Origin: Bacteroidota bacterium
GTDB lineage: Bacteria > Bacteroidota > Bacteroidia > Flavobacteriales_F > PHOS-HE28
Direction of reading: 5' to 3'
Assembly (NCBI GenBank): GCA_963169535.1
Contig: CAUJED010000118.1
Location: 22,834-86,833 of the forward strand
DNA length: 64,000 nucleotides
In this document: positions 8,204 through 49,942 of the stretch, in pieces
How the letters are laid out: each line of letters opens with the position of its first letter
Numbering within the stretch: position 1 is the first letter of the stretch
Made by a program: the position numbers and the translations under genes
The notes under the pieces: model-generated
Told to the model about the DNA's origin: nothing
Databases searched by the model: none
What the model saw: only the letters and a program-made list of their open reading frames with translations

Positions 8204-8553
8204 GGTGGTGCAAGGATAGTGCATGCGGGAACGCGGCCATGCGGCAGGGCAGGTCGGCCACCTCCTTGGTGGCGGTGGGCACCGGTGCCAAGGGCGCGAC
8301 CCCGAGCCAAGCCCCCCGCAGCGCTGAGCGGATACGTTGCAACGCGCGGTAGGCGACACGTGAAAGTACGGTCGACCCGTTCGGCACAAGCTCCTTCGAC
8401 CTATCTTTGTGCCTGGGGCAAGTCCTGTACGACCAGCTCCCGCCGAATCCCCCAGGGCCGGAAGGCAGCAAGGGTAGGCGGTTGAAGCGGTGCGATATGG
8501 GTCGCTTGCCCCTCTTTTTTTGCCTATACCGAAGGGTATCTACCTTTCCGGCC

Positions 8554-37022: not shown

Positions 37023-37841
37023 ATGGCCCACGTCCTGATCGCCACCGACATGAGCGCCAACGCGCTCAACGCCGCCATCTATGGCATCCGGCTCTATGGC
37101 ACGGAAGGCAACCGGTTCACGTTGTTGAACACGTTCCGTTCACCGCCCACGAGCACGGACCTGCCGGTGATGCCCGACCCCACGGCACAGCTCTCCGTGG
37201 AGGGTCTCGAAAGCTTCGCGGGGCAACTGCTGGAACAGCTGCCCGAACCCACGCCGGACCTGGCCACCATCTCGGCCTACGGGGCGTTGAGCCAGGTGCT
37301 CCAGGAGATGTGCGAAGGCCCTGAGCCACCGGACCTGGTGGTGATGGGCACACATGGCACGTCGGGCTTGGAGCGGCTATTGATGGGCAGTACCACCGCC
37401 TCGGTGATCCGCAACGTGGCCCTTCCCGTGCTGGCGGTACCTGCCGCGGCAAGCTATCAGGATCCGGAACGGATCGTCCTGGCCGATGATGGTGGCCCGG
37501 TGGACCGCAGTACCTTGAAAGTGCTGTTGGACATCGCACGTTGGTCGCGCTCCGAAGTGATGATCGTGCACGTGGTACCCGAAGGGCGCGACGCGGAAGA
37601 GACCTTCGGTGGCGAATACGACAAGTTGCTCGGTGCCATACCCCACACCTTCCACAGTGTGAGCGGCGACGATGTGATGGTTGCGTTGAACGACCTGGCG
37701 AACCAGCGCGACACGGACCTGGCCGTGGTGGTGCACCGGCATCGCGGGCGCATCGAGCAGCTCTTCCACCGCAGTGTTTCCACGGAACTGGCGTTGCACA
37801 CGCACACCCCGCTGCTGATCCTTCAGCAAGCCAGCCATTGA
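37023..37841 (+). CDS. Universal stress protein (tandem UspA domains)
   Basis: Two Usp-like halves, each ending in a G-x2-G-x9-G(S/T) ATP-binding-like motif (VMGTHGTSGLERLLMGSTT). Confidence 0.65.
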   Translation: MAHVLIATDMSANALNAAIYGIRLYGTEGNRFTLLNTFRSPPTSTDLPVMPDPTAQLSVEGLESFAGQLLEQLPEPTPDLATISAYGALSQVLQEMCEGPEPPDLVVMGTHGTSGLERLLMGSTTASVIRNVALPVLAVPAAASYQDPERIVLADDGGPVDRSTLKVLLDIARWSRSEVMIVHVVPEGRDAEETFGGEYDKLLGAIPHTFHSVSGDDVMVALNDLANQRDTDLAVVVHRHRGRIEQLFHRSVSTELALHTHTPLLILQQASH

Positions 37842-37849
37842 GCGCGCTG

Positions 37850-38944
37850 ATGCGTGGAGGATTACCGCTCTTCAGCTTCAAGGGGATCAAGGTGTTCCTG
37901 CACTGGACCTTCGCCCTGTTGCCGGCCTATATCGCCATCATGGGGGTGTCCGATGGCGGTTCCTGGCACGACATCCTCACCGAGATCGGCTACGTGCTCA
38001 TCGTGTTCGCTTGCGTGGTGCTGCACGAATTCGGCCATGCCCTCACCGCCCAGCGATTCGGGGTGCGCACACGCGACATCACCATACTTCCGATCGGCGG
38101 TGTGGCCAGCCTGGAGCGCATGCCCGAGGATCCGAAACAGGAGTTCTGGATCACCGTGGCGGGCCCGATGGTCAACCTGGTTATCGCCGGCATCGCCTTC
38201 ATCGCCCTGGCCACCTCCGGCGTGGACTTGCTCACCACCGATCTGCTCAACGACCTGGAAGGCTGGACCGGCCTGCTCACCTTCCTCCTGGCGGCCAACC
38301 TCAGCCTGTTCCTCTTCAACCTCATCCCCGCCTTCCCCATGGACGGTGGGCGCATCCTCCGTTCTGCTCTGGGGATGTGGCTGCCACGCGAGAAAGCCAC
38401 GCGCATCGCCACCTCGATCGGTCGCGTACTGGCCCTATGCTTCGTGGTCTACGGTCTGTACAGTGGCGCCTTCACTCTGGCGATCATCGGCGTGTTCATC
38501 TTCATGGCGGCCGGCAGCGAAGCACGCATGGTGCAGCAGAAAGCCAATGTGTTGGCCTTGCGCGTGGGCCAATGTGTTCGAAGGGATCTCATCCGGATGG
38601 CTCCCTCGGCCACCGTACAGGATGCATGGAACGCCATGACCTTGGTTGACCACCACGTGGTGGTAGTAGTGGACCAAGGGCTGTACCGCGGTCTGGTACT
38701 GAAAGAGGACCTGCGCGCGGCCCTGGCACAAGGATCGGCCACGGCACCCATCGCACATCTGACACAGCATGTGCCGAGCGTGGAACCGGAGCAACCGGCC
38801 ATGGTCGCTTATCAACGCATGGTCCACGAAGGCCATGGGGCCATGGTCTCGACCGATCAGATCCACGGGCTCGGTGTGGTGCTACGCCTGGACCTGGAGA
38901 AAGCCCTGGGGGCGATCGGCCCGACGGCTCCGGCACCACGGTGA
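37850..38944 (+). CDS. Site-2 protease family (M50) zinc metalloprotease with C-terminal CBS pair
   Basis: HExxH (VVLHEFGHAL), multiple TM helices, and a C-terminal CBS-like region. The start is at MRGGLPLF (ATG at 37850), 9 nt after the USP stop. Confidence 0.7.
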   Translation: MRGGLPLFSFKGIKVFLHWTFALLPAYIAIMGVSDGGSWHDILTEIGYVLIVFACVVLHEFGHALTAQRFGVRTRDITILPIGGVASLERMPEDPKQEFWITVAGPMVNLVIAGIAFIALATSGVDLLTTDLLNDLEGWTGLLTFLLAANLSLFLFNLIPAFPMDGGRILRSALGMWLPREKATRIATSIGRVLALCFVVYGLYSGAFTLAIIGVFIFMAAGSEARMVQQKANVLALRVGQCVRRDLIRMAPSATVQDAWNAMTLVDHHVVVVVDQGLYRGLVLKEDLRAALAQGSATAPIAHLTQHVPSVEPEQPAMVAYQRMVHEGHGAMVSTDQIHGLGVVLRLDLEKALGAIGPTAPAPR

Positions 38945-38971: not shown

Positions 38972-39874
38972 CTACTCCACCGGCTTCTTCTTCGGGTCGT
39001 ACAGGGTGAACACACGGGAGATGTTGAATCCGAAATGGATATCACCATCGCCCCATCTTCCGGTGGTCTCCGTGATATAGGCTCGCTCGAACATGCCGGT
39101 GCTGTTGGTGAAATGCAGCTGGAAGACGTGTCCGCCGGTCTCGATATCGAAACCCACCGAGAGTGAATTGGTGAACAGCGGCACATCGTCGCGCATCACG
39201 TGGAAGTACTCCCCATTGATGGCGAGTCGTTTGGACAACTTGGCCCGTGCTCCGACACCAACATGGAACAGGTCGTTCGGATCGTCCGCTGCCTCCACCA
39301 GGTTACGGTGTACCACCCCGGGTGTGACCTGCATGGAGAACCCGTCGCTGAACTTCCGCCCCACCACCATCTGCCAGGAATAGGTAAGCCGGTGCGTGAA
39401 GTGGTCTTCGCGCCCCGGGCCGTACCACGGCACCTCGGTGGCCCGCGCCGTGGTGAGTGACGAGGCCGCCACGACCGCCAGGGTGATGGGCATGCCACAC
39501 CCCTCATCGCACTGCCTCAGCACCTTGAACTTGGCGAACCCGTCCACGGTCTTCTGGTATCCGCTGCGTCCCACGCCCACCATCAACCGATCGGTGATGC
39601 CCATGTCCACGCCAAGGCGCACATCGGCATTGTCCAGACCGAAGAACTCGTTCACCCCACCGCTCAGGAAACCGAACCGGTGGTTGATGCGCATGTCCAA
39701 CACCCCGGCCGCCGTGTTCTCCAGGCTATGTCCGTTGATGACACGCGACGTCTTGAAGCTCGCATTGGTGTGAACCACGCTGGTTTCCGTGGCACCCAGC
39801 AACTCCAGCAGATCCTCTTGGGCACAAGCCGGAGCGGCAAACAGGACGGAGGTGAACAGCAGGCATCGGTTCAT
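38972..39874 (-). CDS. Putative outer-membrane beta-barrel protein
   Basis: Signal peptide (MNRCLLFTSVLFAAPACAQ). Alternating amphipathic beta-strand pattern, and a C-terminal aromatic-rich region. Confidence 0.4.
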   Translation of the reverse strand: MNRCLLFTSVLFAAPACAQEDLLELLGATETSVVHTNASFKTSRVINGHSLENTAAGVLDMRINHRFGFLSGGVNEFFGLDNADVRLGVDMGITDRLMVGVGRSGYQKTVDGFAKFKVLRQCDEGCGMPITLAVVAASSLTTARATEVPWYGPGREDHFTHRLTYSWQMVVGRKFSDGFSMQVTPGVVHRNLVEAADDPNDLFHVGVGARAKLSKRLAINGEYFHVMRDDVPLFTNSLSVGFDIETGGHVFQLHFTNSTGMFERAYITETTGRWGDGDIHFGFNISRVFTLYDPKKKPVE

Positions 39875-39912
39875 GCGCAAGGAAAAGAAAGGCGAGGATC
39901 CACGCACGTGTC

Positions 39913-40467
39913 TCAAAGCTTGGTGTAGGTGAGGTCCACGGTCACCTTCATCTGTTCCGCGATGTTCTTCCGCACGACCCCGGGGATCTCGATGCCATGA
40001 TCCTCCGGCTTCACATGGAAGACACTATGGGCCTTGATGGTGCCATCCGCCTCCACGGTCATGGTGCCTTGGGTCTGGATGGGCTTGGTGACGCCATGGA
40101 TGGTAAGGTCGCCGGAGACCGCGACCGTGTAAGCCCCGGGCTTCTTCAGGTCGGCAAGAGCGACACCCTCCACTTTGCCCTTGAAACCAGCCTTGGGGAA
40201 CGTTCCGCTCTCCATGTAATTCTCGTTGAAGTGCTCCTGCATGAGGGCCTTCTCGAACTCGAAGGCGCGGACCAAGGCTTCGAACTGGATGGCTCCGGTG
40301 GTCGCGTCGAACACACTGGTAACCTTCCGGTTGTCCGCTTCGATATTCTCCACTGGAGTTCCGGAGAAGAAGTGGATATGGCCGTTGCGTGTGGCGAATC
40401 GTTCCTGTGCCGACAATAAGGAGGGCAGCAGTGCCGCTGCGATGGCGAGGGATCTCAAGTTCTTCAT
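39913..40467 (-). CDS. YceI family periplasmic (polyisoprenoid-binding) protein
   Basis: Signal peptide, and YceI core motifs (HFFSGTPVENIEADNRKV..., GDLTIHGVTKPI). Confidence 0.7.
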   Translation of the reverse strand: MKNLRSLAIAAALLPSLLSAQERFATRNGHIHFFSGTPVENIEADNRKVTSVFDATTGAIQFEALVRAFEFEKALMQEHFNENYMESGTFPKAGFKGKVEGVALADLKKPGAYTVAVSGDLTIHGVTKPIQTQGTMTVEADGTIKAHSVFHVKPEDHGIEIPGVVRKNIAEQMKVTVDLTYTKL

Positions 40468-40503
40468 GGTCGTTATCAGTGTTCAGGTTCAGGTTCAGAT
40501 CGA

Positions 40504-40926
40504 TCACGCCGCGATGCAACGCATCAACACCACATCCAGTAGGAAACCGGTGCAAACGCCCCGCACGCTCACCTCATCGCCTTCGTGCCAGTGCGCTGGC
40601 AGGTCGCTATCAGGGAACTCGCAAAGGACACCGGCCAGTGCATCACCGGTCTCGAGCACCACGTTGGTGATACCACTTCCCATCGGTGCGATGCTGCGAA
40701 TGGTGCCACGTACCTCCACCACCTGTTCGGTGGCTCCCACATAGCGGCGGGTGGCAGCTGCCTCATCCGCTTGGAAATCCGCGAGCAGCTGGGCTGCCGT
40801 CACCGTCACCACCACGGGCCGTGTTCCGGTGGCGGCGACACCACGATCGTACTCACGATAAGCTACCATGGCTGCCACCACGAGGAGTGCGGCCACTAAG
40901 GTCCAAAGAAGCTTTCTGCGGTTCAT
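40504..40926 (-). CDS. Membrane-anchored OB-fold (tRNA_anti-like/BOF-type) hypothetical protein
   Basis: About 141 aa with an N-terminal TM anchor followed by a small beta-rich domain. The family assignment is tentative. Confidence 0.35.
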   Translation of the reverse strand: MNRRKLLWTLVAALLVVAAMVAYREYDRGVAATGTRPVVVTVTAAQLLADFQADEAAATRRYVGATEQVVEVRGTIRSIAPMGSGITNVVLETGDALAGVLCEFPDSDLPAHWHEGDEVSVRGVCTGFLLDVVLMRCIAA

Positions 40927-40933
40927 GGTCCGT

Positions 40934-41287
40934 TCAGTTCGGAGCCCCGGCATCGACCCAGGCTTGGAGTTTTTGGATCTCGCATGCGGACAGTGCGCCG
41001 CCCTGCGGCATGCTGCGCGAAACCAGCACCAACTGCTGGAAAGAGCCATTGTCCACGGTGGCCTTCACCGCCGCGTACGTGCGCAGATCCCCAGGCCCCT
41101 GCCCGCCGGGAAGGTGGCAGTTCGCGCAGCGTGTGGCGATGATGGGCTCGATGGTGGAGGCCCAATAGCCCGGGGTCGTGGCACTACCGGGGTCGCAAGC
41201 ACCCGGATACAGGAGCTCCTCCTTGTCGTAGTAGCAACCACCCAGGCACAGAGCGAGGAGGTAGGCGGGGATCATCGAACGGCACAT
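40934..41287 (-). CDS. Small lipoprotein with a single CXXCH motif (PSCyt1-like domain)
   Basis: Lipobox (LLALCLGGC). CANCH heme-binding motif at codons 54-58. C-terminal segment ...LSACEIQKLQAWVDAGAPN. Confidence 0.5.
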   Translation of the reverse strand: MCRSMIPAYLLALCLGGCYYDKEELLYPGACDPGSATTPGYWASTIEPIIATRCANCHLPGGQGPGDLRTYAAVKATVDNGSFQQLVLVSRSMPQGGALSACEIQKLQAWVDAGAPN

Positions 41288-41290
41288 GGC

Positions 41291-42001
41291 TCAATTGTTG
41301 GGCGCACCATCTTCGATCCAGATCAGGAACTGGCGGATCCGGCAGTCGGGCAAGGGGGTGGTGTACGGAGGCATGGCAGCGACACCCGGCAGGTGCTGTA
41401 TGGCGGCGGCCAAACGCCCATCCATGGCCACGCTGTTCAACACATCCCAGCTGCCCAGGTGGAGACCACCCTGCGGTGAGCCACCGCCATGGCAACCACC
41501 ACAGCGTTGGGCCACCAGGGGGGCGATGGTAGCGGTGTAGGTGACATTCACCGTGTCGCAGGCGGCATCCGCACAGGAATTGTTCCGCGCTCCCTGCACC
41601 AACCAGCGTCGGATCAGGTCCTTCTGTTCCGTGGTGAGCGCGCTCTGCGGTGGCGGTGGCATCCGATCGTCCGGATCGGGATCGTTGATCACCTCCCATA
41701 GATCACTGTCAAGGGGATCGGCCACACGGATGATGTCACTGTTCATCAACGTGGCATAGCTCGTGATCTCAATGCCGCGGTTATCATCGGTGGCCGTGTT
41801 GTGGCAGCCCGGCACGGCACAGTTGGAGACCAGCAGCGGCAGCACCTGTTGATCGAAGAACACCGAGTCGGGATCACAGGTGCCCCCGCTCCCACCTTGA
41901 CCATTGCCACCATCCGGCTCATCCGGCATCAGCAGCGGTTCGTGCACACAGCCTCCCAATACCACCACCGCCACGAGGGCCACCCACACGGACGTGCGCA
42001 T
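41291..42001 (-). CDS. Lipoprotein with two tandem PSCyt1-like (planctomycete cytochrome c-type) domains
   Basis: Lipobox (VVVLGGC). Two repeats each end in ...DPxxRMPP...W(L/I)xxGAxNN. The second repeat carries a canonical CGGCH. The first carries a CAVPGCH (CX4CH) variant. Confidence 0.5.
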   Translation of the reverse strand: MRTSVWVALVAVVVLGGCVHEPLLMPDEPDGGNGQGGSGGTCDPDSVFFDQQVLPLLVSNCAVPGCHNTATDDNRGIEITSYATLMNSDIIRVADPLDSDLWEVINDPDPDDRMPPPPQSALTTEQKDLIRRWLVQGARNNSCADAACDTVNVTYTATIAPLVAQRCGGCHGGGSPQGGLHLGSWDVLNSVAMDGRLAAAIQHLPGVAAMPPYTTPLPDCRIRQFLIWIEDGAPNN

Positions 42002-42203
42002 GATGCTGGTCGGTCGGCGATATGAGGTGGATGGTCGCATGCGATGCTCCTTGATGATCCGCAGGACAAAACTATCCCCGGCTGGTAACGGAGACCGGTC
42101 GAAACCGACGAGTCGGGAAAATGGGCCGATGGACCGGGAAGGGAACAGCACTTGAGCCGAACGAGGTGGTGTAGCGATGTATCGCGTCCTGGACCTGGCC
42201 CGG

Positions 42204-42959
42204 CTACTCCCCAGCCAGCCACCGCTTGAACGCGGCCGACCGTTCACTGCTCACGATGGCATCCTCATCGTACGGCGGATCCAGCAACACTTTCACCCTG
42301 CTCTTGCTATAAGCCAGCAGCTCCTTGATGCTGTCCACCTGCACGATCAACTGCCGGTTCAAGCGGATGAAGCGAGCGGAGTCCAGTTGTTTCTCCAAGC
42401 GATCCAGGCTTTCTTCCAGCGGCAGGTCGCGGCCTTCGCGGGTGCGCAGGAAGGTGTTCTTCTGCAACGAATGGATGTAGGCGATCCGCGCTGGTTCCAC
42501 CAGTTTGAAGTGATCGCCGTAGCGGATCAGGAAGCGTTTCACCGGCACATGAACAGGAGCACCGGAGTGGGCCGTACGTTCCAGCACCGCATGATCGCGA
42601 ACCACACCACCCTTCTGTGCACGTTGTAACGCTTCGGCCAGCTCGGCCTTCTTCAGCGGTTTCAGCAGGTAGTCGATGGCGTTCACCCGGAAGGCCTGTA
42701 AGGCGTACGTGTCGAACGCGGTGGCGAACACCACGGGGAAATCCACCTCCACCTGCCGGAAGATGTCGAAGCCATCGCCATCGGCCAACTGCACATCGAA
42801 GAAGGCGAGATCCGGTGCGGGGTTGGTCTTGATCCATGCAACGGCATCGCGCACCGTAGGCAGGTCGGCCACCACGCGCACGGAGGGATCGATCTCCAAC
42901 AGCAACTTCCGCATGCGGGCCACCGCTGCGGCCTCGTCCTCAATGAGCAGGATATCCAT
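42204..42959 (-). CDS. LytTR-family two-component response regulator
   Basis: Receiver domain (MDILLIEDE...D...) followed by a C-terminal LytTR DNA-binding domain. 20-nt overlap with the kinase gene. Confidence 0.8.
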   Translation of the reverse strand: MDILLIEDEAAAVARMRKLLLEIDPSVRVVADLPTVRDAVAWIKTNPAPDLAFFDVQLADGDGFDIFRQVEVDFPVVFATAFDTYALQAFRVNAIDYLLKPLKKAELAEALQRAQKGGVVRDHAVLERTAHSGAPVHVPVKRFLIRYGDHFKLVEPARIAYIHSLQKNTFLRTREGRDLPLEESLDRLEKQLDSARFIRLNRQLIVQVDSIKELLAYSKSRVKVLLDPPYDEDAIVSSERSAAFKRWLAGE

Positions 42960-45753
42960 CGTGTTCGATCAGGGGGATCCGTACTACGAACCATCCATCC
43001 ACACGTTCAACCACCACAGCCTGTGAGTTGATGGCCGTATACTGCTTGCGGATGCTTTCAAGGCCGAAGCCTGTGGAGCGCACGGCGGTGACGCGCGGAC
43101 GGATCGGATTACGCACCACCACCTCCTCATCTTCCACGGTAACGTGTATCGCGAGCGGCTCGTGCATGGTCGCTGCGTTATGCTTCAGAGCGTTCTCCAC
43201 GAGCATCTGGAGCGTCAACGGTACGATAGCGCGGCCATCCGCACCGTGCTCCATGTGGACGAACAGGGCGATGGCCTTACCGAAACGGCGCTGTTCAAGG
43301 TTGAAATAGCTGTGCAACAGCTCCAATTCCTCTTGCAACGGGATCAACTCCTTGTCGCGCACCAGCACGATGTTGCGGAAGAAGGTGCTCAGGTCCTCCA
43401 CGTGCTCCACCGCACTACCCGGTTCGGTCTCGATCAGGGCCACCAGGGTATTGAAGCTGTTGAAAAGGAAATGGGGATCCACCTGGCTACGCAACGCCTC
43501 GAGTTGGAAGCGCACCTTCTCCTGGGCCGACCGTTCGCGATCGCGCAGGCGACGTTCGCGGGTGCGCACCACCGCCACCAACAAGCCGGTGGCCACCAGC
43601 GCCAACACACCGATGACCCAGGGTTGGCGCCACCATGGCGGGGCGATATGGATGATGATGGTACGCCATTCGGTATCGGCCGTGGGTTCGCCGATGAAGG
43701 CCCGGATCCGGATCCGATGCGTGCCCGGCGCGAGTCCGGCGAACGCGAGCTCCCGGTCGCGTGTGCGCAACACCTCGCCCTCGTCACCAGCAGCGTATTC
43801 GAACCGCAGTGCACCGGGATCCGGATAGTAAAGGCCGGTGAGCTGGATGGTGACACTGTTGCGATCATGCGTGGTGTGCACCACATCCGTGGGTGGCACA
43901 TTCTCACCCCCTACCAGAACGCCAGTGATCACCACGGGGATACGCGCGTCGAAATGGTCGTCGTTCAAACGCATACGTACCAGTCCTTCATTGCATGCGA
44001 ACCAGATCGTTCCGTCGGGTGTGCGGGCCACGGTGTTGAGCTCCGCGCTGATACCCTGTGTGCCCAGGCGCGCAGTAAGGTCGACCCACGCGCCGGAGCG
44101 CGGATCCAAGGCCATAGTGGCCCGCTCGCCCAGCACCAGAAGCCGCCCGCGGGTGGAGGCCAGGGCATACACATCACCCGCGAAGAGCGGCAATTCCGCG
44201 CCGAAGCAGGCCACCGCGCCCGGGGACAGCCTGCATACCCCCGCACCAGGCCCCATGGCCCAGGGTCGTGCCTGATCATCCGTTACCAGGGAATAGAAGG
44301 TCCGTGCCTCAGTGGGCAGGGGTGTGGCCGTGTCCGATGCAAAGGCCAGTACACCATGGCCATCGGTCGCCACCAGCGCGTGTCCCTGGCCAGTAGGCAA
44401 CACGTCGAAGGTGAATCCTATGGTGCCTTCCACCGGCTTGAACCCACTTCCGTTCCACAACGAAGCGCCATCGAGGGTGGCGAACCACACCGAGTCGCCA
44501 TCGGCCCGGGCGGCCAGCACATTGAGGTTGTGCGGACCATCGACACCGCTAAAATGCCGTACGGTACCATTCGGTGCCATGGCCACCACCCCACTGCCGA
44601 AGGTGGCGGCCCAGATGGTGCCATTGCGGGTGGCCGCCAAGGAGACCACCGGCGTACGGGGATCGAGGTCCACAGGTACACGTTGGAAAGGAGTGTTGCC
44701 GTTGAAGACCAGCGGATGGTGATGGATGCCCGACGGAGTGGCCACCCAGATCCGGTCCTTGGTGGTGCAGAGCGCGGAAACCTTCCGAAGGTCTAGGCCT
44801 GCGAACGAAGGGAGATACAAGATCGCCGGATCGGCACGATGGATCCGGTCGGTGCCATCGCACCACCACATGGCCCCTTGTCGATCACGCCAGAAAGCCA
44901 TGATGGCCCCTGTGGGCGATGGTTGATGATGGATGCCCGCATCAGGGTCAAGTTCCACTACGACCACTCCACTGGTGTCCGTGCCGACCCAGAGCCGGTG
45001 CTCTTCCACCGCCACCCGTGTCACAGGCCCGTATGGCCAAGCGCCGTTCAGCAGTGGCACCACTTCTGCCGTGCCGGGCTTCCAGCGGAACACGCCACGC
45101 GCATCGGTGCCTCCCACCACCGAACCGTCGGGCAGCACCGCCAGCGCCATCACCAGGTTATCCGGGGCACCGGACCGCTCATCGAGCACGTGCTCCACTC
45201 CCTTATCCGATACCACGGCCAAGCCCTGGTCGGTGGCCACCACCACGCGCCGATCATCCAGCGCCGCGATATCATTCACATGCACATCGGGTAGGCCGGC
45301 TGTGAAGGGGGATCGTTCCACCACCCCTGCCCGAAGGCGGAAGACGCCGGCACCATACGTTCCCAACCACAAGGCGCCATCCGCCGTGCGCGTCATGGAA
45401 CGCACCGGAGCCGCCACCAGCTCTGGTACCGCAGGCAGCGTATCGCACACGCCGGCCGCACACCGCACCAAGGCACCTGTGGCAAAAGCGATGTAGACCT
45501 CGCCTCCATGCGCGAACATCGCATTCACCTGACCGGTCTCCGTCCGGAACATGGGTTCCACCCGCTCCCCATCGGTACGCAACACACCCAGGTCGGACCC
45601 GGCCCATAGCAGGCCTAGGCTGTCCTGGACCAGATGGCTGATGCGCGGTTGGCGCTGGCCCGCATCCACCTCCAGCGTACGGTGGAAGGGGAATTGGGCC
45701 TGGATCTCCAGCGACAGGAGCAACAGGAGCAATGATCCACTCCAGCGCGTCAT
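42940..45753 (-). CDS. Sensor histidine kinase: periplasmic two-component-regulator beta-propeller plus Y_Y_Y, TM, LytS-type His_kinase/HATPase
   Basis: 937 aa. Signal peptide and long propeller repeats (GxLW, G...W patterns). A TM helix is followed by the C-terminal LytS-type kinase core (HFLFNSFNTLVALIE..., NALKHN). Confidence 0.75.
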   Translation of the reverse strand: MTRWSGSLLLLLLSLEIQAQFPFHRTLEVDAGQRQPRISHLVQDSLGLLWAGSDLGVLRTDGERVEPMFRTETGQVNAMFAHGGEVYIAFATGALVRCAAGVCDTLPAVPELVAAPVRSMTRTADGALWLGTYGAGVFRLRAGVVERSPFTAGLPDVHVNDIAALDDRRVVVATDQGLAVVSDKGVEHVLDERSGAPDNLVMALAVLPDGSVVGGTDARGVFRWKPGTAEVVPLLNGAWPYGPVTRVAVEEHRLWVGTDTSGVVVVELDPDAGIHHQPSPTGAIMAFWRDRQGAMWWCDGTDRIHRADPAILYLPSFAGLDLRKVSALCTTKDRIWVATPSGIHHHPLVFNGNTPFQRVPVDLDPRTPVVSLAATRNGTIWAATFGSGVVAMAPNGTVRHFSGVDGPHNLNVLAARADGDSVWFATLDGASLWNGSGFKPVEGTIGFTFDVLPTGQGHALVATDGHGVLAFASDTATPLPTEARTFYSLVTDDQARPWAMGPGAGVCRLSPGAVACFGAELPLFAGDVYALASTRGRLLVLGERATMALDPRSGAWVDLTARLGTQGISAELNTVARTPDGTIWFACNEGLVRMRLNDDHFDARIPVVITGVLVGGENVPPTDVVHTTHDRNSVTIQLTGLYYPDPGALRFEYAAGDEGEVLRTRDRELAFAGLAPGTHRIRIRAFIGEPTADTEWRTIIIHIAPPWWRQPWVIGVLALVATGLLVAVVRTRERRLRDRERSAQEKVRFQLEALRSQVDPHFLFNSFNTLVALIETEPGSAVEHVEDLSTFFRNIVLVRDKELIPLQEELELLHSYFNLEQRRFGKAIALFVHMEHGADGRAIVPLTLQMLVENALKHNAATMHEPLAIHVTVEDEEVVVRNPIRPRVTAVRSTGFGLESIRKQYTAINSQAVVVERVDGWFVVRIPLIEHDGYPAH

Positions 45754-46319
45754 CGTGCTGCGGCGGGTGCTTTGAACAGGGCATCCACCTTCACCCGCAC
45801 CACCGGAGCCACCTTCTGCTGCACCACCCTTGGGATCCGGATACCATGCTCATCCACCGCCACATCGAAATCGCTCGACACGCGGATGCCATCCCTGGCC
45901 ACCACCACCTCGCAGGGGATGATACGCTCCTTCTTCACCCCATGGATCACAAGGTCGCCCTTGGCCCGTACGCCATATCGCCCGGGGGTGGTGAGATCCA
46001 CGGACTCGATCAGGCGCCCTGCGAAGGTGGCGTTCGCGTGCGTCCGGGAATCCATATAGTTCTCGTTGAAGTGCTCACGTTGCAACGGAGAATTGAACCC
46101 TTCGAACTCCGCCATGGGGATCTGCACGGCGAATGCCCGCGAGCCCAGGTCCAGCACACCCGCCGCGCCTTCATTGGTCGCTTCGATGTGCTCCAACGGG
46201 GCCTCGCTCACGAAAGTGATCAACGACCGGCTCAACTTCCAGCGCATCGTATCCTGGGCCATGAGGGTGGCCTGGGCGAACAAGAGCCAAAGAAGAGTAG
46301 TGGTGCGCATACTTCTCAA
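45750..46319 (-). CDS. YceI family periplasmic protein (second paralogue)
   Basis: Signal peptide (MRTTTLLWLLFAQATLMAQ) and a YceI-like core (GDLVIHGVKKERI). Confidence 0.65.
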   Translation of the reverse strand: MRSMRTTTLLWLLFAQATLMAQDTMRWKLSRSLITFVSEAPLEHIEATNEGAAGVLDLGSRAFAVQIPMAEFEGFNSPLQREHFNENYMDSRTHANATFAGRLIESVDLTTPGRYGVRAKGDLVIHGVKKERIIPCEVVVARDGIRVSSDFDVAVDEHGIRIPRVVQQKVAPVVRVKVDALFKAPAAAR

Positions 46320-46428
46320 AAGCGGATCACCGGTTCAAACAGGGGCCGCGCGGTCCCAGGACCAGTGGCCCATGAACAACGCGGCCTGACGACAAAGAAG
46401 CCCGACCTTGACAAGGTACGGGCTTCGC

Positions 46429-46518
46429 TGGCGGAGAGGGAGGGATTCGAACCCCCGGTGCCCTTGCGAGCACTTCTGTTTTCGAGACAGACCCGTTCGA
46501 CCACTCCGGCACCTCTCC
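46429..46518 (-). tRNA. tRNA-Ser (anticodon CGA), type II with long variable arm, CCA encoded
   Basis: The reverse complement folds with acceptor GGAGAGG/CCTCTCC, anticodon stem TCTGT/ACAGA and loop CTCGAAA. It has an 18-nt variable arm, a GGTTCGAATCC T-loop, discriminator G and CCA. Confidence 0.85.
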
Positions 46519-46613
46519 TGGATCCCCCGCCCCGGAGTGCGGCAGAGGGGCGGCAAAGATAGACGGCGCAACGAACCGACGAGGTACCGAACTTGGTCCC
46601 CAAAGCCGAACCC

Positions 46614-47105
46614 ATGTCCACCGAAGCCCAAGTACTCGCCCATACCATGGAAAAGACCCGTGAATACACGCGGATGTACCTTGATAAGTTGGTCGACCAG
46701 GACCCGCACCGGCGCTTCGTTTGCGAGGGCAAGGAACTGAACACGGTATACTGGCTCGTGGCCCACATCGCATCCACACAGAATGGTCTGCTGTTGATGG
46801 CCACGGATGGCCCGTTCGAGAAATTCTCCTGGGCCAAACACTTCGGGCGCAGCAGTGCCGGGCTGCCGCCGGAGCAATGTCCGCCCTTCGCCGAGGTGCT
46901 CGGTACGTTCCATCGGATCCACGACAAGGCCATCGCGCACATCGCCAGCTTATCCGGATCCGCACTTACAGGGCCGAACCGCACGGGCATCGCGATCATC
47001 GGCACCACGGTCCGTGATGTCATCGTACACGCCATTCGCCACGAAGGCCTCCATACCGGCCACCTGAGCTGGCTGTGCAAACTCTACGGGATCAAGACCA
47101 TGTGA
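46614..47105 (+). CDS. DinB/YfiT-like (DinB_2) family protein
   Basis: About 163 aa with a four-helix-bundle metalloprotein-like pattern (three His: WLVAHIA..., HAIRHEGLHTGHL). Confidence 0.5.
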   Translation: MSTEAQVLAHTMEKTREYTRMYLDKLVDQDPHRRFVCEGKELNTVYWLVAHIASTQNGLLLMATDGPFEKFSWAKHFGRSSAGLPPEQCPPFAEVLGTFHRIHDKAIAHIASLSGSALTGPNRTGIAIIGTTVRDVIVHAIRHEGLHTGHLSWLCKLYGIKTM

Positions 47106-47328
47106 CCCGAGGCTGAAGCGATCGCCTTTGCACTTCCTTGGTACGGGAAGGTTCCAGCATGGAAACCTCGGATCATACCATTGGGACATTCACGGACCGG
47201 ATCGATACCAAGGGTATCATCCGTGTCATAAGTGGTTCTCCGATCCCGTGAAACGCGCCTTCAGCCGAATGAAAAAGACCCGGCAGCCCTGCCCGATACC
47301 CTGAACAGACGGGGCTACCGGCCTACTT

Positions 47329-48672
47329 TTGCCAGCCAATATCCGGCCCATGGCATACCGCGCACCGATAGATCGTATTCGCCAACCGTTCGATGCCGTG
47401 CTCGGGGCGCAAACCTCGGGAGGGGTACTGCTGTTCATCGCCACGGTGGTGGCCATGGTATGGGCCAACTCTCCCTGGGCCGAGAGCTATCATCACCTGT
47501 GGGCGCAGCACATCGTGGTGGGCAATGAAACGTGGCGGCTTGACCTGAGCCTTCACCACTGGATCAACGACGGCTTGATGGCGATGTTCTTCTTCGTGGT
47601 CGGGTTGGAGTTGAAACGCGAAATGGTGGCGGGTGAGCTATCCCGGCCACGCGATGCCATGTTGCCCCTGGCAGCGGCGCTGGGGGGGATGATCGTGCCG
47701 GCATTGATCTACCTGGCGCAGAACCCCAGCGGTCCGGCCCACGCCGGGTGGGGGATCCCCATGGCCACGGACATCGCCTTCGCCCTGGGTCTGATGGCAC
47801 TATTGGGGAACCGGGTACCCGTGGCGCTCAAGATCTTCTTAACGACCCTAGCGGTGGCCGACGACCTGGGTGCCGTGTTGGTGATCGCCCTGTTCTACAC
47901 CTCGGACATCTCGGTGCTCAACCTGGCCCTGGGTGCGGGGATCCTGGGGGTGATGTGGGTAGGGAACCGTTATGGCGTACGCAGCCCATGGTTCTATGCC
48001 TTCTTCGGGATCGGCGGTGTTTGGACCGCATTCCTCATGAGCGGGGTGCACGCCACCATCGCCGGAGTGCTGGCCGCCTTCGTGATCCCCGCCAAGCCCA
48101 AGGTGAGCGAAATGGTCTTCGTCCGCACCATGCGGCGTCTCCTGTACCGTTACGAACGGCACGACCCGGGCAGCAAGGGATTGCGCACAGCGGACCAACT
48201 GCACGAACTGGACCGGATGAGCCGACTTGGTGAGTACGCCAGCACGCCGCTTCAGCAGCTCGAGCATACCCTTCACCCCTTGGTGACCTTCGTAGTCCTA
48301 CCCTTGTTCGCGCTGGCCAACGCGGGTGTTGCGCTTCCCGCCGACCTGGCCGGCGCACTGGGCACCCCGGTGGCCATGGGGGTAGGGCTCGGTCTGTTGC
48401 TGGGCAAACCCATCGGTGTCATGCTGGCTTCATACCTGATGGTACGTTTCGCAGGTGCGCGGCTGGGCACCGGGGTGACCTGGAGACACATGATCGGCGC
48501 GGGCATCCTCGCGGGTATCGGATTCACCATGTCGTTATTCGTGAACGAGCTCGCGTTCGCCGACGAAGTACTTCGGCAAGAGGCGAAACTGGGCGTGCTC
48601 TGTGCCTCACTACTGGCGGGCATCCTGGGCTACGTTTGGCTGGTGCGCACACCGAAGAAGGAGGCCGCCTGA
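47329..48672 (+). CDS. nhaA: Na+/H+ antiporter NhaA
   Basis: Conserved NhaA segments are present (WINDGLMAMFFF, LAVADDLGAV, the two crossing helices). Confidence 0.85.
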   Translation: MPANIRPMAYRAPIDRIRQPFDAVLGAQTSGGVLLFIATVVAMVWANSPWAESYHHLWAQHIVVGNETWRLDLSLHHWINDGLMAMFFFVVGLELKREMVAGELSRPRDAMLPLAAALGGMIVPALIYLAQNPSGPAHAGWGIPMATDIAFALGLMALLGNRVPVALKIFLTTLAVADDLGAVLVIALFYTSDISVLNLALGAGILGVMWVGNRYGVRSPWFYAFFGIGGVWTAFLMSGVHATIAGVLAAFVIPAKPKVSEMVFVRTMRRLLYRYERHDPGSKGLRTADQLHELDRMSRLGEYASTPLQQLEHTLHPLVTFVVLPLFALANAGVALPADLAGALGTPVAMGVGLGLLLGKPIGVMLASYLMVRFAGARLGTGVTWRHMIGAGILAGIGFTMSLFVNELAFADEVLRQEAKLGVLCASLLAGILGYVWLVRTPKKEAA

Positions 48673-49850: not shown

Positions 49851-49942
49851 GTATCCCACCACCAAGGCAGCGGGGCCGCAAATATAGCGTGTTACCGGGA
49901 TCCCGCGCACAATAGCCTGCTCGGAGCGTACTTTCGGCACCT

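Follow-up and report, generated by a model that had tools for sequence, protein, structure and literature searches.

A YceI–histidine kinase–LytTR module adjoining a separately promoted five-gene core: a widely conserved, undescribed gene system of Bacteroidota

The window analysed here, a 64-kb stretch of DNA from a Bacteroidota bacterium, carries on its minus strand eight open reading frames at positions 38972-46319, all in the orientation given for them in an earlier note on this DNA. Listed in the direction of transcription, the features of the locus are:

46429..46518, minus strand: tRNA-Ser(CGA), the upstream edge of the cluster (ARAGORN; Rfam tRNA, 58.2 bits)
45750..46310, minus strand: YceI-1, a periplasmic YceI-family lipocalin with a signal peptide (Pfam YceI, 39.5 bits)
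42940..45753, minus strand: sensor histidine kinase, 937 aa (Pfam His_kinase, 75 bits; Reg_prop, 60 bits)
42204..42959, minus strand: response regulator, 251 aa, receiver plus LytTR (Pfam Response_reg, 58.3 bits; LytTR, 56.2 bits)
42105..42140, minus strand: putative regulator site, two 15-nt direct repeats in 21-bp phase (matrix score 34.4 bits)
42067..42074, minus strand: Bacteroidota-type -7 box TAGTTTTG, a match to TAnnTTTG
41291..42040, minus strand: di-haem c-type cytochrome lipoprotein, 249 aa (lipobox LGGC)
40934..41287, minus strand: mono-haem c-type cytochrome lipoprotein, 117 aa (Cytochrome_CBB3, 25.0 bits, below cut-off)
40504..40926, minus strand: membrane-anchored OB-fold protein, 140 aa (Pfam tRNA_anti-like, 53.9 bits)
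39913..40467, minus strand: YceI-2, a periplasmic YceI-family lipocalin (Pfam YceI, 55.6 bits)
38972..39874, minus strand: DUF5777 outer-membrane protein, 300 aa (Pfam DUF5777, 296 bits)

The domain assignments of the earlier note (YceI twice, Reg_prop/His_kinase, receiver plus LytTR, c-type cytochrome lipoproteins, tRNA_anti-like OB fold and DUF5777) all hold, and the tRNA-Ser that it placed at the cluster edge is found by both ARAGORN and Rfam. Its picture of one eight-gene cluster has to be replaced by that of two units: a sensory module (YceI-1, kinase and LytTR regulator) and a separately promoted core (di-haem lipoprotein, mono-haem lipoprotein, membrane-anchored OB protein, YceI-2 and a 12-stranded outer-membrane barrel). 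Between the regulator and di-haem genes lies a gap of 163 nt with a promoter inside it, and therefore the locus is made of two units, not of a single evident transcript of all eight genes. Junctions were read off the sequence. The YceI-1 and kinase genes overlap by 4 nt (ATGA, 45750-45753) and the kinase and regulator genes by 20 nt (42940-42959), both as previously described; in the core, the successive spacings are 3 nt (di-haem/mono-haem), 7 nt (mono-haem/OB), 36 nt (OB/YceI-2) and 38 nt (YceI-2/barrel). The probable starts of four genes are shorter than the maximal ORFs (ATG at 39874 for the barrel, 40926 for OB, 42040 for the di-haem protein and 46310 for YceI-1); public gene calls on the same contig match three of these four, the OB protein being shorter there (130 aa vs 140). 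Each core product has an export signal that can be read from its sequence (signal peptide, lipobox or signal anchor); all five are predicted to be extracytoplasmic, with the OB protein anchored in the inner membrane.

The larger of the two lipoproteins has two haem domains, one with a CX4CH motif (CAVPGCH, invariant in the family) and MPPPP, the other with CGGCH and MP. In the smaller one, the lipobox (LGGC) is followed by an acidic stretch (YYDKEE) and a single CANCH motif with SMP downstream. It shares 31% identity with domain 2 of the larger protein, and its family invariants are C18, Y19, D21, C31, C54..C57H58 and M93P94. The invariance of C..CH followed by M-P in all three domains, as in c-type cytochromes, argues for the predicted haem sites being real. 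Comparison with cytochrome models, named in the earlier note as a check on the two CXXCH proteins, gave matches: Pfam Cytochrome_CBB3 hits both (25.0 bits for the smaller and 25.6 for the larger, slightly under the cut-off of 27). PSCyt1, assigned in that note to both lipoproteins, passes its cut-off in the larger only (32.3 bits vs 22), and the CXXCH assignment stands except for the first motif of the larger protein. Small stand-alone PSCyt1-type lipoproteins had also been considered unusual. A relative of the di-haem protein is present in at least 551 species-level genomes, mostly of Bacteroidota; such small cytochrome lipoproteins are thus common in this phylum and no anomaly. The nearest solved relatives of the di-haem protein are FoxE (PDB 5mab) and PccH (PDB 4rlr), with 22-25% identity over 79-96 residues. 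The structure models are of moderate confidence (pLDDT 77 and 67) and contain no haem; Foldseek against the PDB returned no significant match.

The remaining core genes encode an OB protein, a lipocalin and a barrel. In the OB protein, a transmembrane helix at the N-terminus precedes the extracytoplasmic tRNA_anti-like domain, and the profile of the protein matches PDB 3f1z, annotated as a 'putative nucleic acid-binding lipoprotein' (E-value 5e-4). Its gene is kept in the core operon of other genomes, and the slot of YceI-2 between the OB and barrel genes is likewise conserved across loci. In the DUF5777 protein, a signal peptide and a conserved stretch of ~35 aa near the N-terminus precede a predicted 12-stranded β-barrel that resembles small specific channels.

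YceI-1, which opens the sensory module (186 aa in public records for the same contig), is 37% identical to YceI-2 and lies ahead of the kinase gene in 31 of the 31 loci where the contig permits viewing. The kinase starts with a signal/anchor, followed by a periplasmic β-propeller region of ~680 aa, one transmembrane segment and a His_kinase core of the LytS/YehU type with N and G boxes. Its sequence matches in the PDB are sensor domains of Bacteroides hybrid two-component systems (3v9f, 3va6, 3ott, 4a2l) and a kinase (6swj); Y_Y_Y, expected in it by the earlier note, had no Pfam match at E<=0.1. The regulator resembles BtsR and LytR in NCBIfam at sub-threshold scores only. The pair thus shares its His_kinase (PF06580) core and receiver-LytTR regulator with systems such as BtsS/BtsR, YpdA/YpdB and LytSR, but differs from LytS systems in that the sensor is a periplasmic double propeller of the Bacteroides hybrid two-component type instead of a multi-pass 5TM-Lyt domain, the kinase gene is preceded by a co-transcribed lipocalin gene and the promoter belongs to the -33/-7 type of Bacteroidota. 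Some kinases sense via a periplasmic binding protein, as in LuxP-LuxQ, TorT-TorS and ChvE-VirA, and here too the gene for a secreted ligand-binding protein is always found beside that of the sensor kinase. We infer from this gene linkage alone that YceI-1 interacts with the kinase; to our knowledge, no YceI lipocalin is known as the binding-protein partner of a kinase.

Conservation of gene order, the other check named in the earlier note, is borne out in many genomes. Among the 42 loci with enough flanking sequence, 22 have all eight genes and two nearly all, ten have the core alone and eight are reduced, retaining only the barrel and c-type cytochromes. The occurrence of the core alone in 10/42 loci indicates that it is independent of this regulator. 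The core operon is found in Flavobacteriales, Chitinophagales, Saprospiraceae, Cytophagales, Bacteroidales and one Ignavibacteriaceae genome, and the sensory module still adjoins it in four permuted loci (L038, L067, L078 and L063) and a divergent one (L075). The order recurs in several bacterial orders, far beyond what chance would produce. The searchable literature yielded no account of the system, in agreement with the earlier view of an undescribed module. We conclude that this is a real, widely conserved and hitherto undescribed gene system of Bacteroidota.

The proposed LytTR link is strengthened by a pair of direct repeats upstream of the core, with a distal unit TTCCCGGTCCATCGG (42126-42140) and a proximal unit TTCCCGACTCGTCGG (42105-42119). 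This is the sole pair scoring >=20 bits on either strand of the 64 kb, with none at control offsets, and in a leave-one-out test it scores 33.1 bits vs 16.7 for the runner-up. An offset of 21 gives at least 9/11 matches in 19 of 26 regulator-to-core intergenic regions, while each of the other offsets from 12 to 35 does so in 0-4 of them. At the same threshold of >=20 bits, 30 of 35 loci with a linked kinase gene have the pair, the other five lacking a site, against 0 of 20 loci without the kinase (Fisher p = 1e-10, a value that overstates independence because kinase-linked loci served to train the matrix and the loci are related by descent); permuted loci left out of matrix building carry it as well. 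Known LytTR sites consist of two 9-11-nt repeats with 11-13 nt between them (PMC4847170), and the pair in the window has the layout typical of such sites; like those of AgrA and ComE, the predicted site lies immediately before a promoter and has two direct repeats phased by ~21 bp (PMC4847170). The -7 box starts 30 nt past the proximal repeat and ends 26 nt ahead of the di-haem ATG, the distance from start to start being 34 nt. TAnnTTTG has just nine matches in the window, this box included, and three of the others lie immediately upstream of the SRP RNA and two tRNAs. Across loci, TT[TC][GA] begins 34-35 nt past the proximal unit in 45 of 53 repeat pairs. The repeat pair with fixed promoter geometry is thus confined to loci with the kinase/regulator module; the predicted wiring of the regulator to the core is well supported computationally, and the kinase and regulator appear to turn on the five cell-envelope genes.

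Taken together, these data suggest, with a probability of about 0.6, a two-module envelope system, mainly of Bacteroidota, in which a YceI/kinase/LytTR sensor drives a core operon acting as an electron relay, probably for redox handling of a lipophilic, YceI-bound ligand. The kinase would respond to a signal in the periplasm, most likely a lipophilic molecule that YceI-1 presents to it; judging from the domain architecture, it would then phosphorylate the regulator. Two regulator molecules would then bind the repeats at 42105-42140, a site defined from the sequence and cross-genome comparison, and activate the adjacent promoter. By analogy with known systems, the induced proteins might form a short relay between periplasm and outer membrane, in which the cytochromes swap electrons with an isoprenoid quinone or oxidised lipid bound to YceI-2 or, alternatively, with a small redox-active solute let in through the barrel. 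Precedents for YceI acting together with cytochromes are Cbp2D/E (PMC8981238) and LcoA-BcnA. The latter (YceJ-YceI in E. coli) is a cytochrome b561 and YceI lipocalin pair that detoxifies lipid peroxyl radicals in the envelope, is stress-induced in Burkholderia and has been proposed to work through re-reduction of a lipocalin-bound isoprenoid quinone by the cytochrome (PMC9113575). LcoA-BcnA and the system described here both genetically couple a secreted YceI-family lipocalin to an extracytoplasmic haem protein, but the one in the window has no cytochrome b561, a role presumably taken over by the c-type lipoproteins, with three FoxE/PccH-like haem domains on two proteins. It also adds an OB-fold anchor and an outer-membrane barrel, has two YceI paralogues, one of them kinase-linked, and resides in Bacteroidota. 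The quinones of this phylum are menaquinones, not ubiquinone. The cluster encodes no cytochrome b561, no quinone-handling enzyme and no terminal enzyme.

The core could alternatively serve in Fe(II) oxidation, metal redox chemistry or electron uptake, with Fe(II) or another soluble reductant entering through the DUF5777 channel, the cytochromes oxidising it and passing electrons to the respiratory chain, and the kinase sensing metal or redox state. We regard this as possible but unlikely. As in FoxE, the di-haem protein is built of two homologous domains, and as in MtrAB and Cyc2, an outer-membrane barrel is encoded together with c-type cytochromes. The di-haem protein differs from FoxE and PccH in being a lipoprotein whose first domain has an invariant CX4CH, and the cytochromes of the locus bind one or two predicted haems each, unlike deca-haem conduit proteins. 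Against an iron or metal role, the FoxE likeness is remote (25% identity over 96 residues), and neither FoxY nor FoxZ, the partners of FoxE, is present. Moreover, the barrel, with 12 strands and ~250 residues against roughly 26 strands in MtrB, is too small to hold a cytochrome inside, there is no Cyc2-type fusion to the barrel, and the two YceI lipocalins with their tight kinase link are left without a role. Rather doubtful is the view that the core handles a hydrophobic compound with no redox purpose, the barrel and YceI-2 carrying it across the envelope and the CXXCH proteins being structural or metal-binding instead of haem proteins. Structural neighbours of the barrel, which is much more conserved than the cytochromes, include channels for hydrophobic substrates of the COG4313 and FadL/TodX types, and isoprenoids and other amphiphiles are ligands of YceI proteins (PMC9113575); against this, the invariant haem motifs and cytochrome-model matches favour haem, and the most constant partners of the barrel across loci are the cytochrome genes.

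Improbable, too, is a supply of electrons to extracellular oxidative enzymes under a propeller kinase that senses glycan in the manner of Bacteroides hybrid two-component sensors. The model for it is Cbp2D/Cbp2E of Cellvibrio japonicus and Saccharophagus degradans, which combine YceI-like quinone-binding and c-type cytochrome domains and are thought to conduct electrons beyond the cytoplasm (PMC8981238). The window system pairs the same kinds of extracytoplasmic domains, but a carbohydrate-binding module, glycoside hydrolase, SusC/D pair or monooxygenase lies beside the cluster in 0 of 86 parsed loci, structural likeness to X183 is negligible, and YceI-1 as kinase partner suggests a lipophilic ligand rather than a glycan. 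Finally, the eight genes might be neighbours by chance, or the target of the sensory module might lie elsewhere, which we consider hardly credible. Many genomes do have the core without the sensory module, and in close relatives lacking it the same tRNA adjoins the core operon in the opposite orientation, so that the module may have been gained or lost beside a tRNA gene. Comparative data already contradict a chance association: linkage of the two modules survives rearrangements in several orders, the repeat pair follows the kinase module (30/35 vs 0/20 loci), and it always precedes the first core gene, even where this is the OB gene (L038, L067 and L078).

The stretch 38972-46319 holds eight ORFs, all on the minus strand and each with a Pfam match, which, judging from sequence and gene-neighbourhood comparisons, form an envelope operon of five genes (the core) and, linked to it, a sensory module of its own. 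The genes and the tRNA gene closing the cluster are as follows.

38972-39874, minus strand: DUF5777 barrel, core operon; Pfam DUF5777 (PF19089), 296 bits, over the cut-off
39913-40467, minus strand: YceI-2, core operon; Pfam YceI (PF04264), 55.6 bits, cut-off 23.7
40504-40926, minus strand: OB protein, core operon; Pfam tRNA_anti-like (PF12869), 53.9 bits, cut-off 23.5
40934-41287, minus strand: 117-aa mono-haem cytochrome lipoprotein, core operon; Cytochrome_CBB3, 25.0 bits, under the cut-off of 27
41291-42040, minus strand: di-haem lipoprotein, core operon; PSCyt1 (PF07635), 32.3 bits, cut-off 22; second cytochrome-like domain
42204-42959, minus strand: regulator, sensory module; Pfam Response_reg, 58.3 bits, and LytTR, 56.2 bits
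42940-45753, minus strand: kinase of 937 aa, sensory module; Pfam Reg_prop repeats and His_kinase (PF06580), 75 bits
45750-46310, minus strand: YceI-1, sensory module; Pfam YceI (PF04264), 39.5 bits, cut-off 23.7
46429-46518: tRNA-Ser(CGA), closing the cluster

An earlier note had described eight same-strand genes of these domain families ending at tRNA-Ser, and both the ORFs with their Pfam matches and the position of the tRNA gene bear this out. The junctions quoted there are also correct: kinase and regulator overlap by 20 nt, YceI-1 and kinase by 4 nt, and the cytochrome genes lie 3 nt apart. The shorter gene starts used here match the public gene calls for three of four genes on GenBank contig SSGN01000018.1 (a Flavobacteriales metagenome-assembled genome with the same sequence), where the OB protein is shorter still (130 aa vs 140 here). 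Since the products carry a signal peptide, lipobox or signal anchor, the system is placed in the cell envelope, except for the regulator and the cytoplasmic part of the kinase. NCBIfam gave sub-threshold matches only (the cytochromes to the LIC11213 lipoprotein, the regulator to BtsR and LytR), and an Rfam search found no RNA family within the cluster.

The kinase and regulator are of the LytS/LytTR type. The former has the PF06580 core and an ATPase with recognizable N and G boxes (PHFLFN, LVENALKHN, GFGLESI) and matches the kinase 6swj in the PDB, and the latter combines a receiver with a LytTR domain. However, whereas LytS, BtsS and YpdA have a multi-pass 5TM-Lyt membrane sensor, the kinase of the window has a periplasmic Reg_prop propeller region and a single transmembrane segment. 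Its sensor region resembles the periplasmic domains of Bacteroides hybrid two-component proteins (PDB 3v9f, 3va6, 3ott and 4a2l); the Y_Y_Y model, listed for checking in the earlier note, gave no match in the kinase at E<=0.1. In the Bacteroides hybrid systems the sensor consists of a periplasmic double propeller plus Y_Y_Y, and the receiver and AraC-type DNA-binding domain are fused to the kinase, whereas here the kinase ends after the ATPase and the LytTR regulator is a separate protein.

The core genes recur together. In gene neighbourhoods of very different Bacteroidota we found the same five genes (di-haem lipoprotein, small cytochrome, OB protein, YceI and DUF5777), in several cases without a kinase or regulator nearby, and a relative of the di-haem protein is encoded in at least 551 species-representative genomes. 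Using profile models built on the window proteins, we parsed 80 loci from the species-representative scan, 42 of which had enough flanking sequence for the gene set to be classified. All eight genes were present in the order of the window in 22 of the 42, a near-complete set was present in two and the core alone in ten, and the remaining eight had reduced sets (only the di-haem gene, or the cytochromes, in some cases together with the barrel). Thus, the gene order recurs in other genomes, a point which the earlier note had put up for checking, but its single eight-gene cluster resolves into two modules, one of which also occurs by itself. The modules may be rearranged relative to each other and still stay adjacent: in some Chitinophagales loci the core begins with the OB gene, and the sensory module follows the barrel in L038 and L067 but precedes the core in L063 and L078, and in one Saprospiraceae genome (L075) the two modules are divergent. 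YceI-1 lies ahead of the kinase in all 31 loci where the contig permits a view. A cultured carrier, Pontibacter populi HYL7-15 (L054), encodes the kinase, the regulator and the five core genes on a contig that begins within the kinase gene. YceI-1 and YceI-2 are 37% identical, and the YceI paralogues fall into two groups which agree with gene position in every parsed locus.

In close relatives without the sensory module, tRNA-Ser(CGA) is found directly beside the di-haem gene in inverted orientation (L022:9692-9781 and L003:7709-7797; 46429-46518 in the window). Because these relatives keep the tRNA gene beside the core, the three sensory genes behave as a unit that is gained or lost, which suggests rearrangement at tRNA-Ser(CGA) as the putative route. 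Directly after the tRNA gene and before YceI-1, the minus strand has a GC-rich hairpin (GAAGCCCG...CGGGCTTC) followed by TTTGT (46397-46426), probably a terminator separating tRNA-Ser from the sensory module. A consensus terminator scan did not list this hairpin; its matches were weak and near chance (7 vs 4.3 expected), and one of them was actually the promoter region.

The link between the modules extends to a putative regulator-binding site. We compared the 163-nt gap between the regulator and di-haem genes of the window with the equivalent region of 25 other loci. In self-comparison, an offset of 21 bp gave at least 9 of 11 matches in 19 of the 26 regions, whereas each of the other offsets from 12 to 35 bp did so in 0-4 regions. 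Seeded iterative refinement yielded a 15-nt matrix with the consensus TTCCCGGTTCATCGG in high-GC genomes and TTCCTGTTCAG in low-GC genomes. The pair of direct repeats at 42105-42140 scores 34.4 bits and is the sole pair of at least 20 bits in the 64 kb on both strands; control offsets gave no pair of this score in the window. When the window was left out of training, the pair still scored 33.1 bits vs 16.7 for the next best among 127,930 positions. Typical sites of LytTR regulators consist of two 9-11-nt repeats with 11-13-nt spacers (PMC4847170), a layout to which the putative site of the window, with its 21-bp phase, conforms.

Across 2.6 Mb of loci, counting both strands, there are 52 repeat pairs, nearly all of which immediately precede either the leading gene of the core or a small additional gene. 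This includes the permuted loci, in which the pair lies upstream of the OB gene where that gene leads the core. Of 35 kinase-linked loci, 30 have a pair upstream of the core, as against none of the 20 loci demonstrably without the kinase (Fisher p = 1e-10; since the matrix was derived from kinase-linked loci and the loci are related to one another, this value overstates independence). By inspection, the kinase-free core operons have no evident shared alternative motif upstream. The window lacks a repeat pair upstream of YceI-1, where the best score is -5.3 bits, and few other loci have one at this position; therefore, the sensory module is probably not autoregulated through this element.

The repeats also keep a constant distance to the promoter. 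TT[TC][GA] begins 34-35 nt past the proximal repeat unit in 45 of 53 pairs, which places the Bacteroidota -7 box (TAnnTTTG) 30-31 nt downstream of that unit. The box of the window, TAGTTTTG at 42067-42074, is one of only nine TAnnTTTG matches in the 64 kb, three others of which lie directly upstream of the SRP RNA and two tRNAs. A sigma-70 scan of the region gave no sites, which is uninformative because Bacteroidota use a different consensus; the search for TAnnTTTG was used instead. Taken together, the comparisons indicate a conserved putative site of the LytTR type in fixed register with the operon promoter, present only where the sensory module is. The small SRP RNA, of the Bacteroidales type, lies at 8409-8515, and since an exact box stands ahead of this gene (8402-8515 with the SRP RNA) and of either tRNA gene (46554-46561 and 49879-49886), TAnnTTTG is a useful promoter marker in this genome.

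In many relatives, a ninth gene is inserted between the regulator and di-haem genes (L007:6379-6666, L008:9640-9819, L012:9507-9794, L026:9589-9819 and about 19 further loci). Its product of about 60-95 aa is without a signal peptide, has the motif LLGRI..LN..PRYHN.LDAI and has no Pfam match, and the gene usually has its own copy of the repeat pair. No homologue of it was found anywhere in the 64-kb window.

As to the core proteins, the di-haem protein scores over the PSCyt1 cut-off and has both the haem motif and the distal Met. Invariant in the family alignment are the lipobox Cys and the K-H-E-P after it, the haem motifs of domain 1 (CX4CH) and domain 2 (CXXCH), each with an M-P further on, and the paired cysteines flanking each domain. 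The CX4CH motif reads CAVPGCH in the window (41802-41822). The 117-aa protein is 31% identical to domain 2 of the di-haem protein and has invariant C..CH and M-P, with the haem motif of its orthologues varying among CX2CH, CX4CH and CX5CH in one alignment column. It has no PSCyt1 match in Pfam, and its Cytochrome_CBB3 score is below the cut-off; of the two small lipoproteins previously called PSCyt1-like, only the di-haem protein passes the PSCyt1 cut-off. The profile of the di-haem family retrieved FoxE (E 2e-4), cytochrome c6 (E 8e-4) and, weakly, PccH from the PDB, and longer relatives match Pfam PccH. Based on these similarities, the two lipoproteins very probably comprise three c-type haem domains of a FoxE/PccH-like kind. 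For cytochrome c maturation, Bacteroidota use a type II system. From the lipidated Cys onward, C-Y-Y-D-x-E-E is invariant in the small cytochrome, an acidic stretch resembling the surface-export signal of Bacteroidota lipoproteins, so that one or both cytochromes may face the cell surface.

The DUF5777 protein scores over its family cut-off and is predicted to fold into a 12-stranded beta-barrel following a conserved, poorly modelled N-terminal segment (pLDDT 67). Although its sequence has no meaningful match in the PDB, the predicted model is structurally closest to outer-membrane barrels that likewise have 12 strands and for the most part are small specific channels (KdgM, NanC, FapF, a COG4313 channel and Tsx). 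Its 120 best homologues are 64-87% identical to it, whereas the listed relatives of the di-haem protein are mostly about 40% to 70% identical. This conservation, together with the invariant His65, His189, His249, His254 and QCDxGC pair (38972-39874), is not usual in a pore that is merely passive; the barrel may bind a cofactor or have a catalytic function. The OB protein has an N-terminal membrane anchor and conserved cysteines. Its profile retrieved only the uncharacterised entry 3f1z from the PDB, and the single sequence had no match there. Nucleic-acid binding is unlikely for such an extracytoplasmic, membrane-anchored protein.

These observations can be accommodated in a scheme where YceI-1 would present a lipophilic ligand to the propeller sensor, the phosphorylated regulator would bind the repeats and activate the operon, and the induced proteins would form a short electron relay involving a lipophilic redox molecule bound by YceI-2 or a solute admitted by the barrel. 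A lipophilic ligand is favoured as the central molecule mainly because the sensing module and the effector module each include a YceI paralogue; proteins of the YceI family bind isoprenoids or other lipophilic ligands within a barrel of 8 strands. Two precedents are known for YceI acting with haem proteins outside the cytoplasm, namely, LcoA-BcnA, a cytochrome b561-lipocalin pair which limits membrane lipid peroxidation (PMC9113575), and Cbp2D/E, in which a YceI-like domain that binds quinone is joined to c-type cytochrome domains (PMC8981238). Unlike in LcoA-BcnA, where the b561 gene adjoins the YceI gene, no cytochrome b561 gene is found among the eight genes of the window or in their flanks. 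A more far-reaching reading, to which we assign a probability of about 0.3, is that of a previously unrecognised, Bacteroidota-wide inducible trans-envelope redox conduit composed of FoxE/PccH-type lipoprotein cytochromes, a YceI lipocalin that carries a quinone and a 12-stranded outer-membrane barrel dedicated to the system. Through it, electrons would pass between the respiratory chain and either the outer membrane or the exterior (e.g. in extracellular redox chemistry of Fe(II) or other species, or to quench outer-membrane lipid radicals), and it would be induced by the first known kinase sensing its ligand via a YceI lipocalin. The chemistry of the system is a guess.

Alternatively, the core may have an iron or extracellular-electron role, as suggested by the similarity of its cytochromes to FoxE and PccH, by reduced loci retaining only cytochromes and barrel, and by the presence in one relative of an accessory Reeler/CXXCH protein whose tail is of the type IX secretion kind; such a role, however, would leave the lipocalins without a function. 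The operon of the iron oxidase FoxE also encodes FoxY, a PQQ protein, and the transporter FoxZ; their genes are absent from the window cluster and from the 86 parsed loci. MtrAB porin-cytochrome conduits place about 10 haems inside a barrel of at least 20 strands, whereas the proteins considered here have one or two haem motifs each and the barrel is predicted to be 12-stranded. A role in glycan or monooxygenase chemistry finds no support in the neighbouring genes. Chance adjacency of the two modules is excluded by the comparative data.

Each domain belongs to a known family, and there is nothing out of the ordinary in an operon controlled by a two-component system; the system is kin both to YceI-cytochrome envelope systems and to LytTR two-component systems. 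In agreement with the earlier suggestion of an undescribed system, we found no description in the searchable literature of the combination of c-type lipoprotein cytochromes, YceI, OB anchor and DUF5777, nor of the lipocalin-kinase pairing or the cis element; a YceI protein mentioned in a paper on iron limitation in Riemerella is unrelated. The system is widespread in environmentally abundant Bacteroidota, joins three families of unknown function and comes with a concrete, testable regulatory model. If the model is true, three families which now have neither in Bacteroidota would gain a function and a regulator: DUF5777, with over 8000 homologues among the scored candidates, the tRNA_anti-like proteins of extracytoplasmic location and the small PSCyt1-like cytochrome lipoproteins. 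It would also show how a lipocalin is coupled to haem proteins in the envelope of bacteria without the cytochrome b561-YceI pair of Proteobacteria, extend the known routes of input to histidine kinases by a lipocalin-assisted sensor and define a LytTR promoter architecture (repeat, 6 nt, repeat, 30 nt, -7 box) in a phylum with poorly mapped promoters and regulators. Activated sludge, freshwater and soil are rich in carriers of the system, and a role in envelope redox or iron handling would therefore bear on the biogeochemistry of these habitats.

Some clusters in other genomes contain extra type IX secretion cargo genes (L034, L015 and L020). In L034 (11480-12328) a Reeler-domain protein with an N-terminal CXXCH and a type IX secretion tail is encoded between the OB and YceI-2 genes, and in L015 (8443-9612) and L020 (8338-9534) a BNR/Ycf48-like propeller protein is encoded between the regulator and di-haem genes. 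The cluster of the window is flanked by genes for a universal stress protein, an M50 peptidase with CBS domains, a DinB/MST-family protein, an NhaA antiporter and a cation-efflux protein (37023-38944 and 46593-48672); of these, the genes for the stress protein and the M50 peptidase are neighbours of the core in L003 and L004 as well, two loci without the sensory module.
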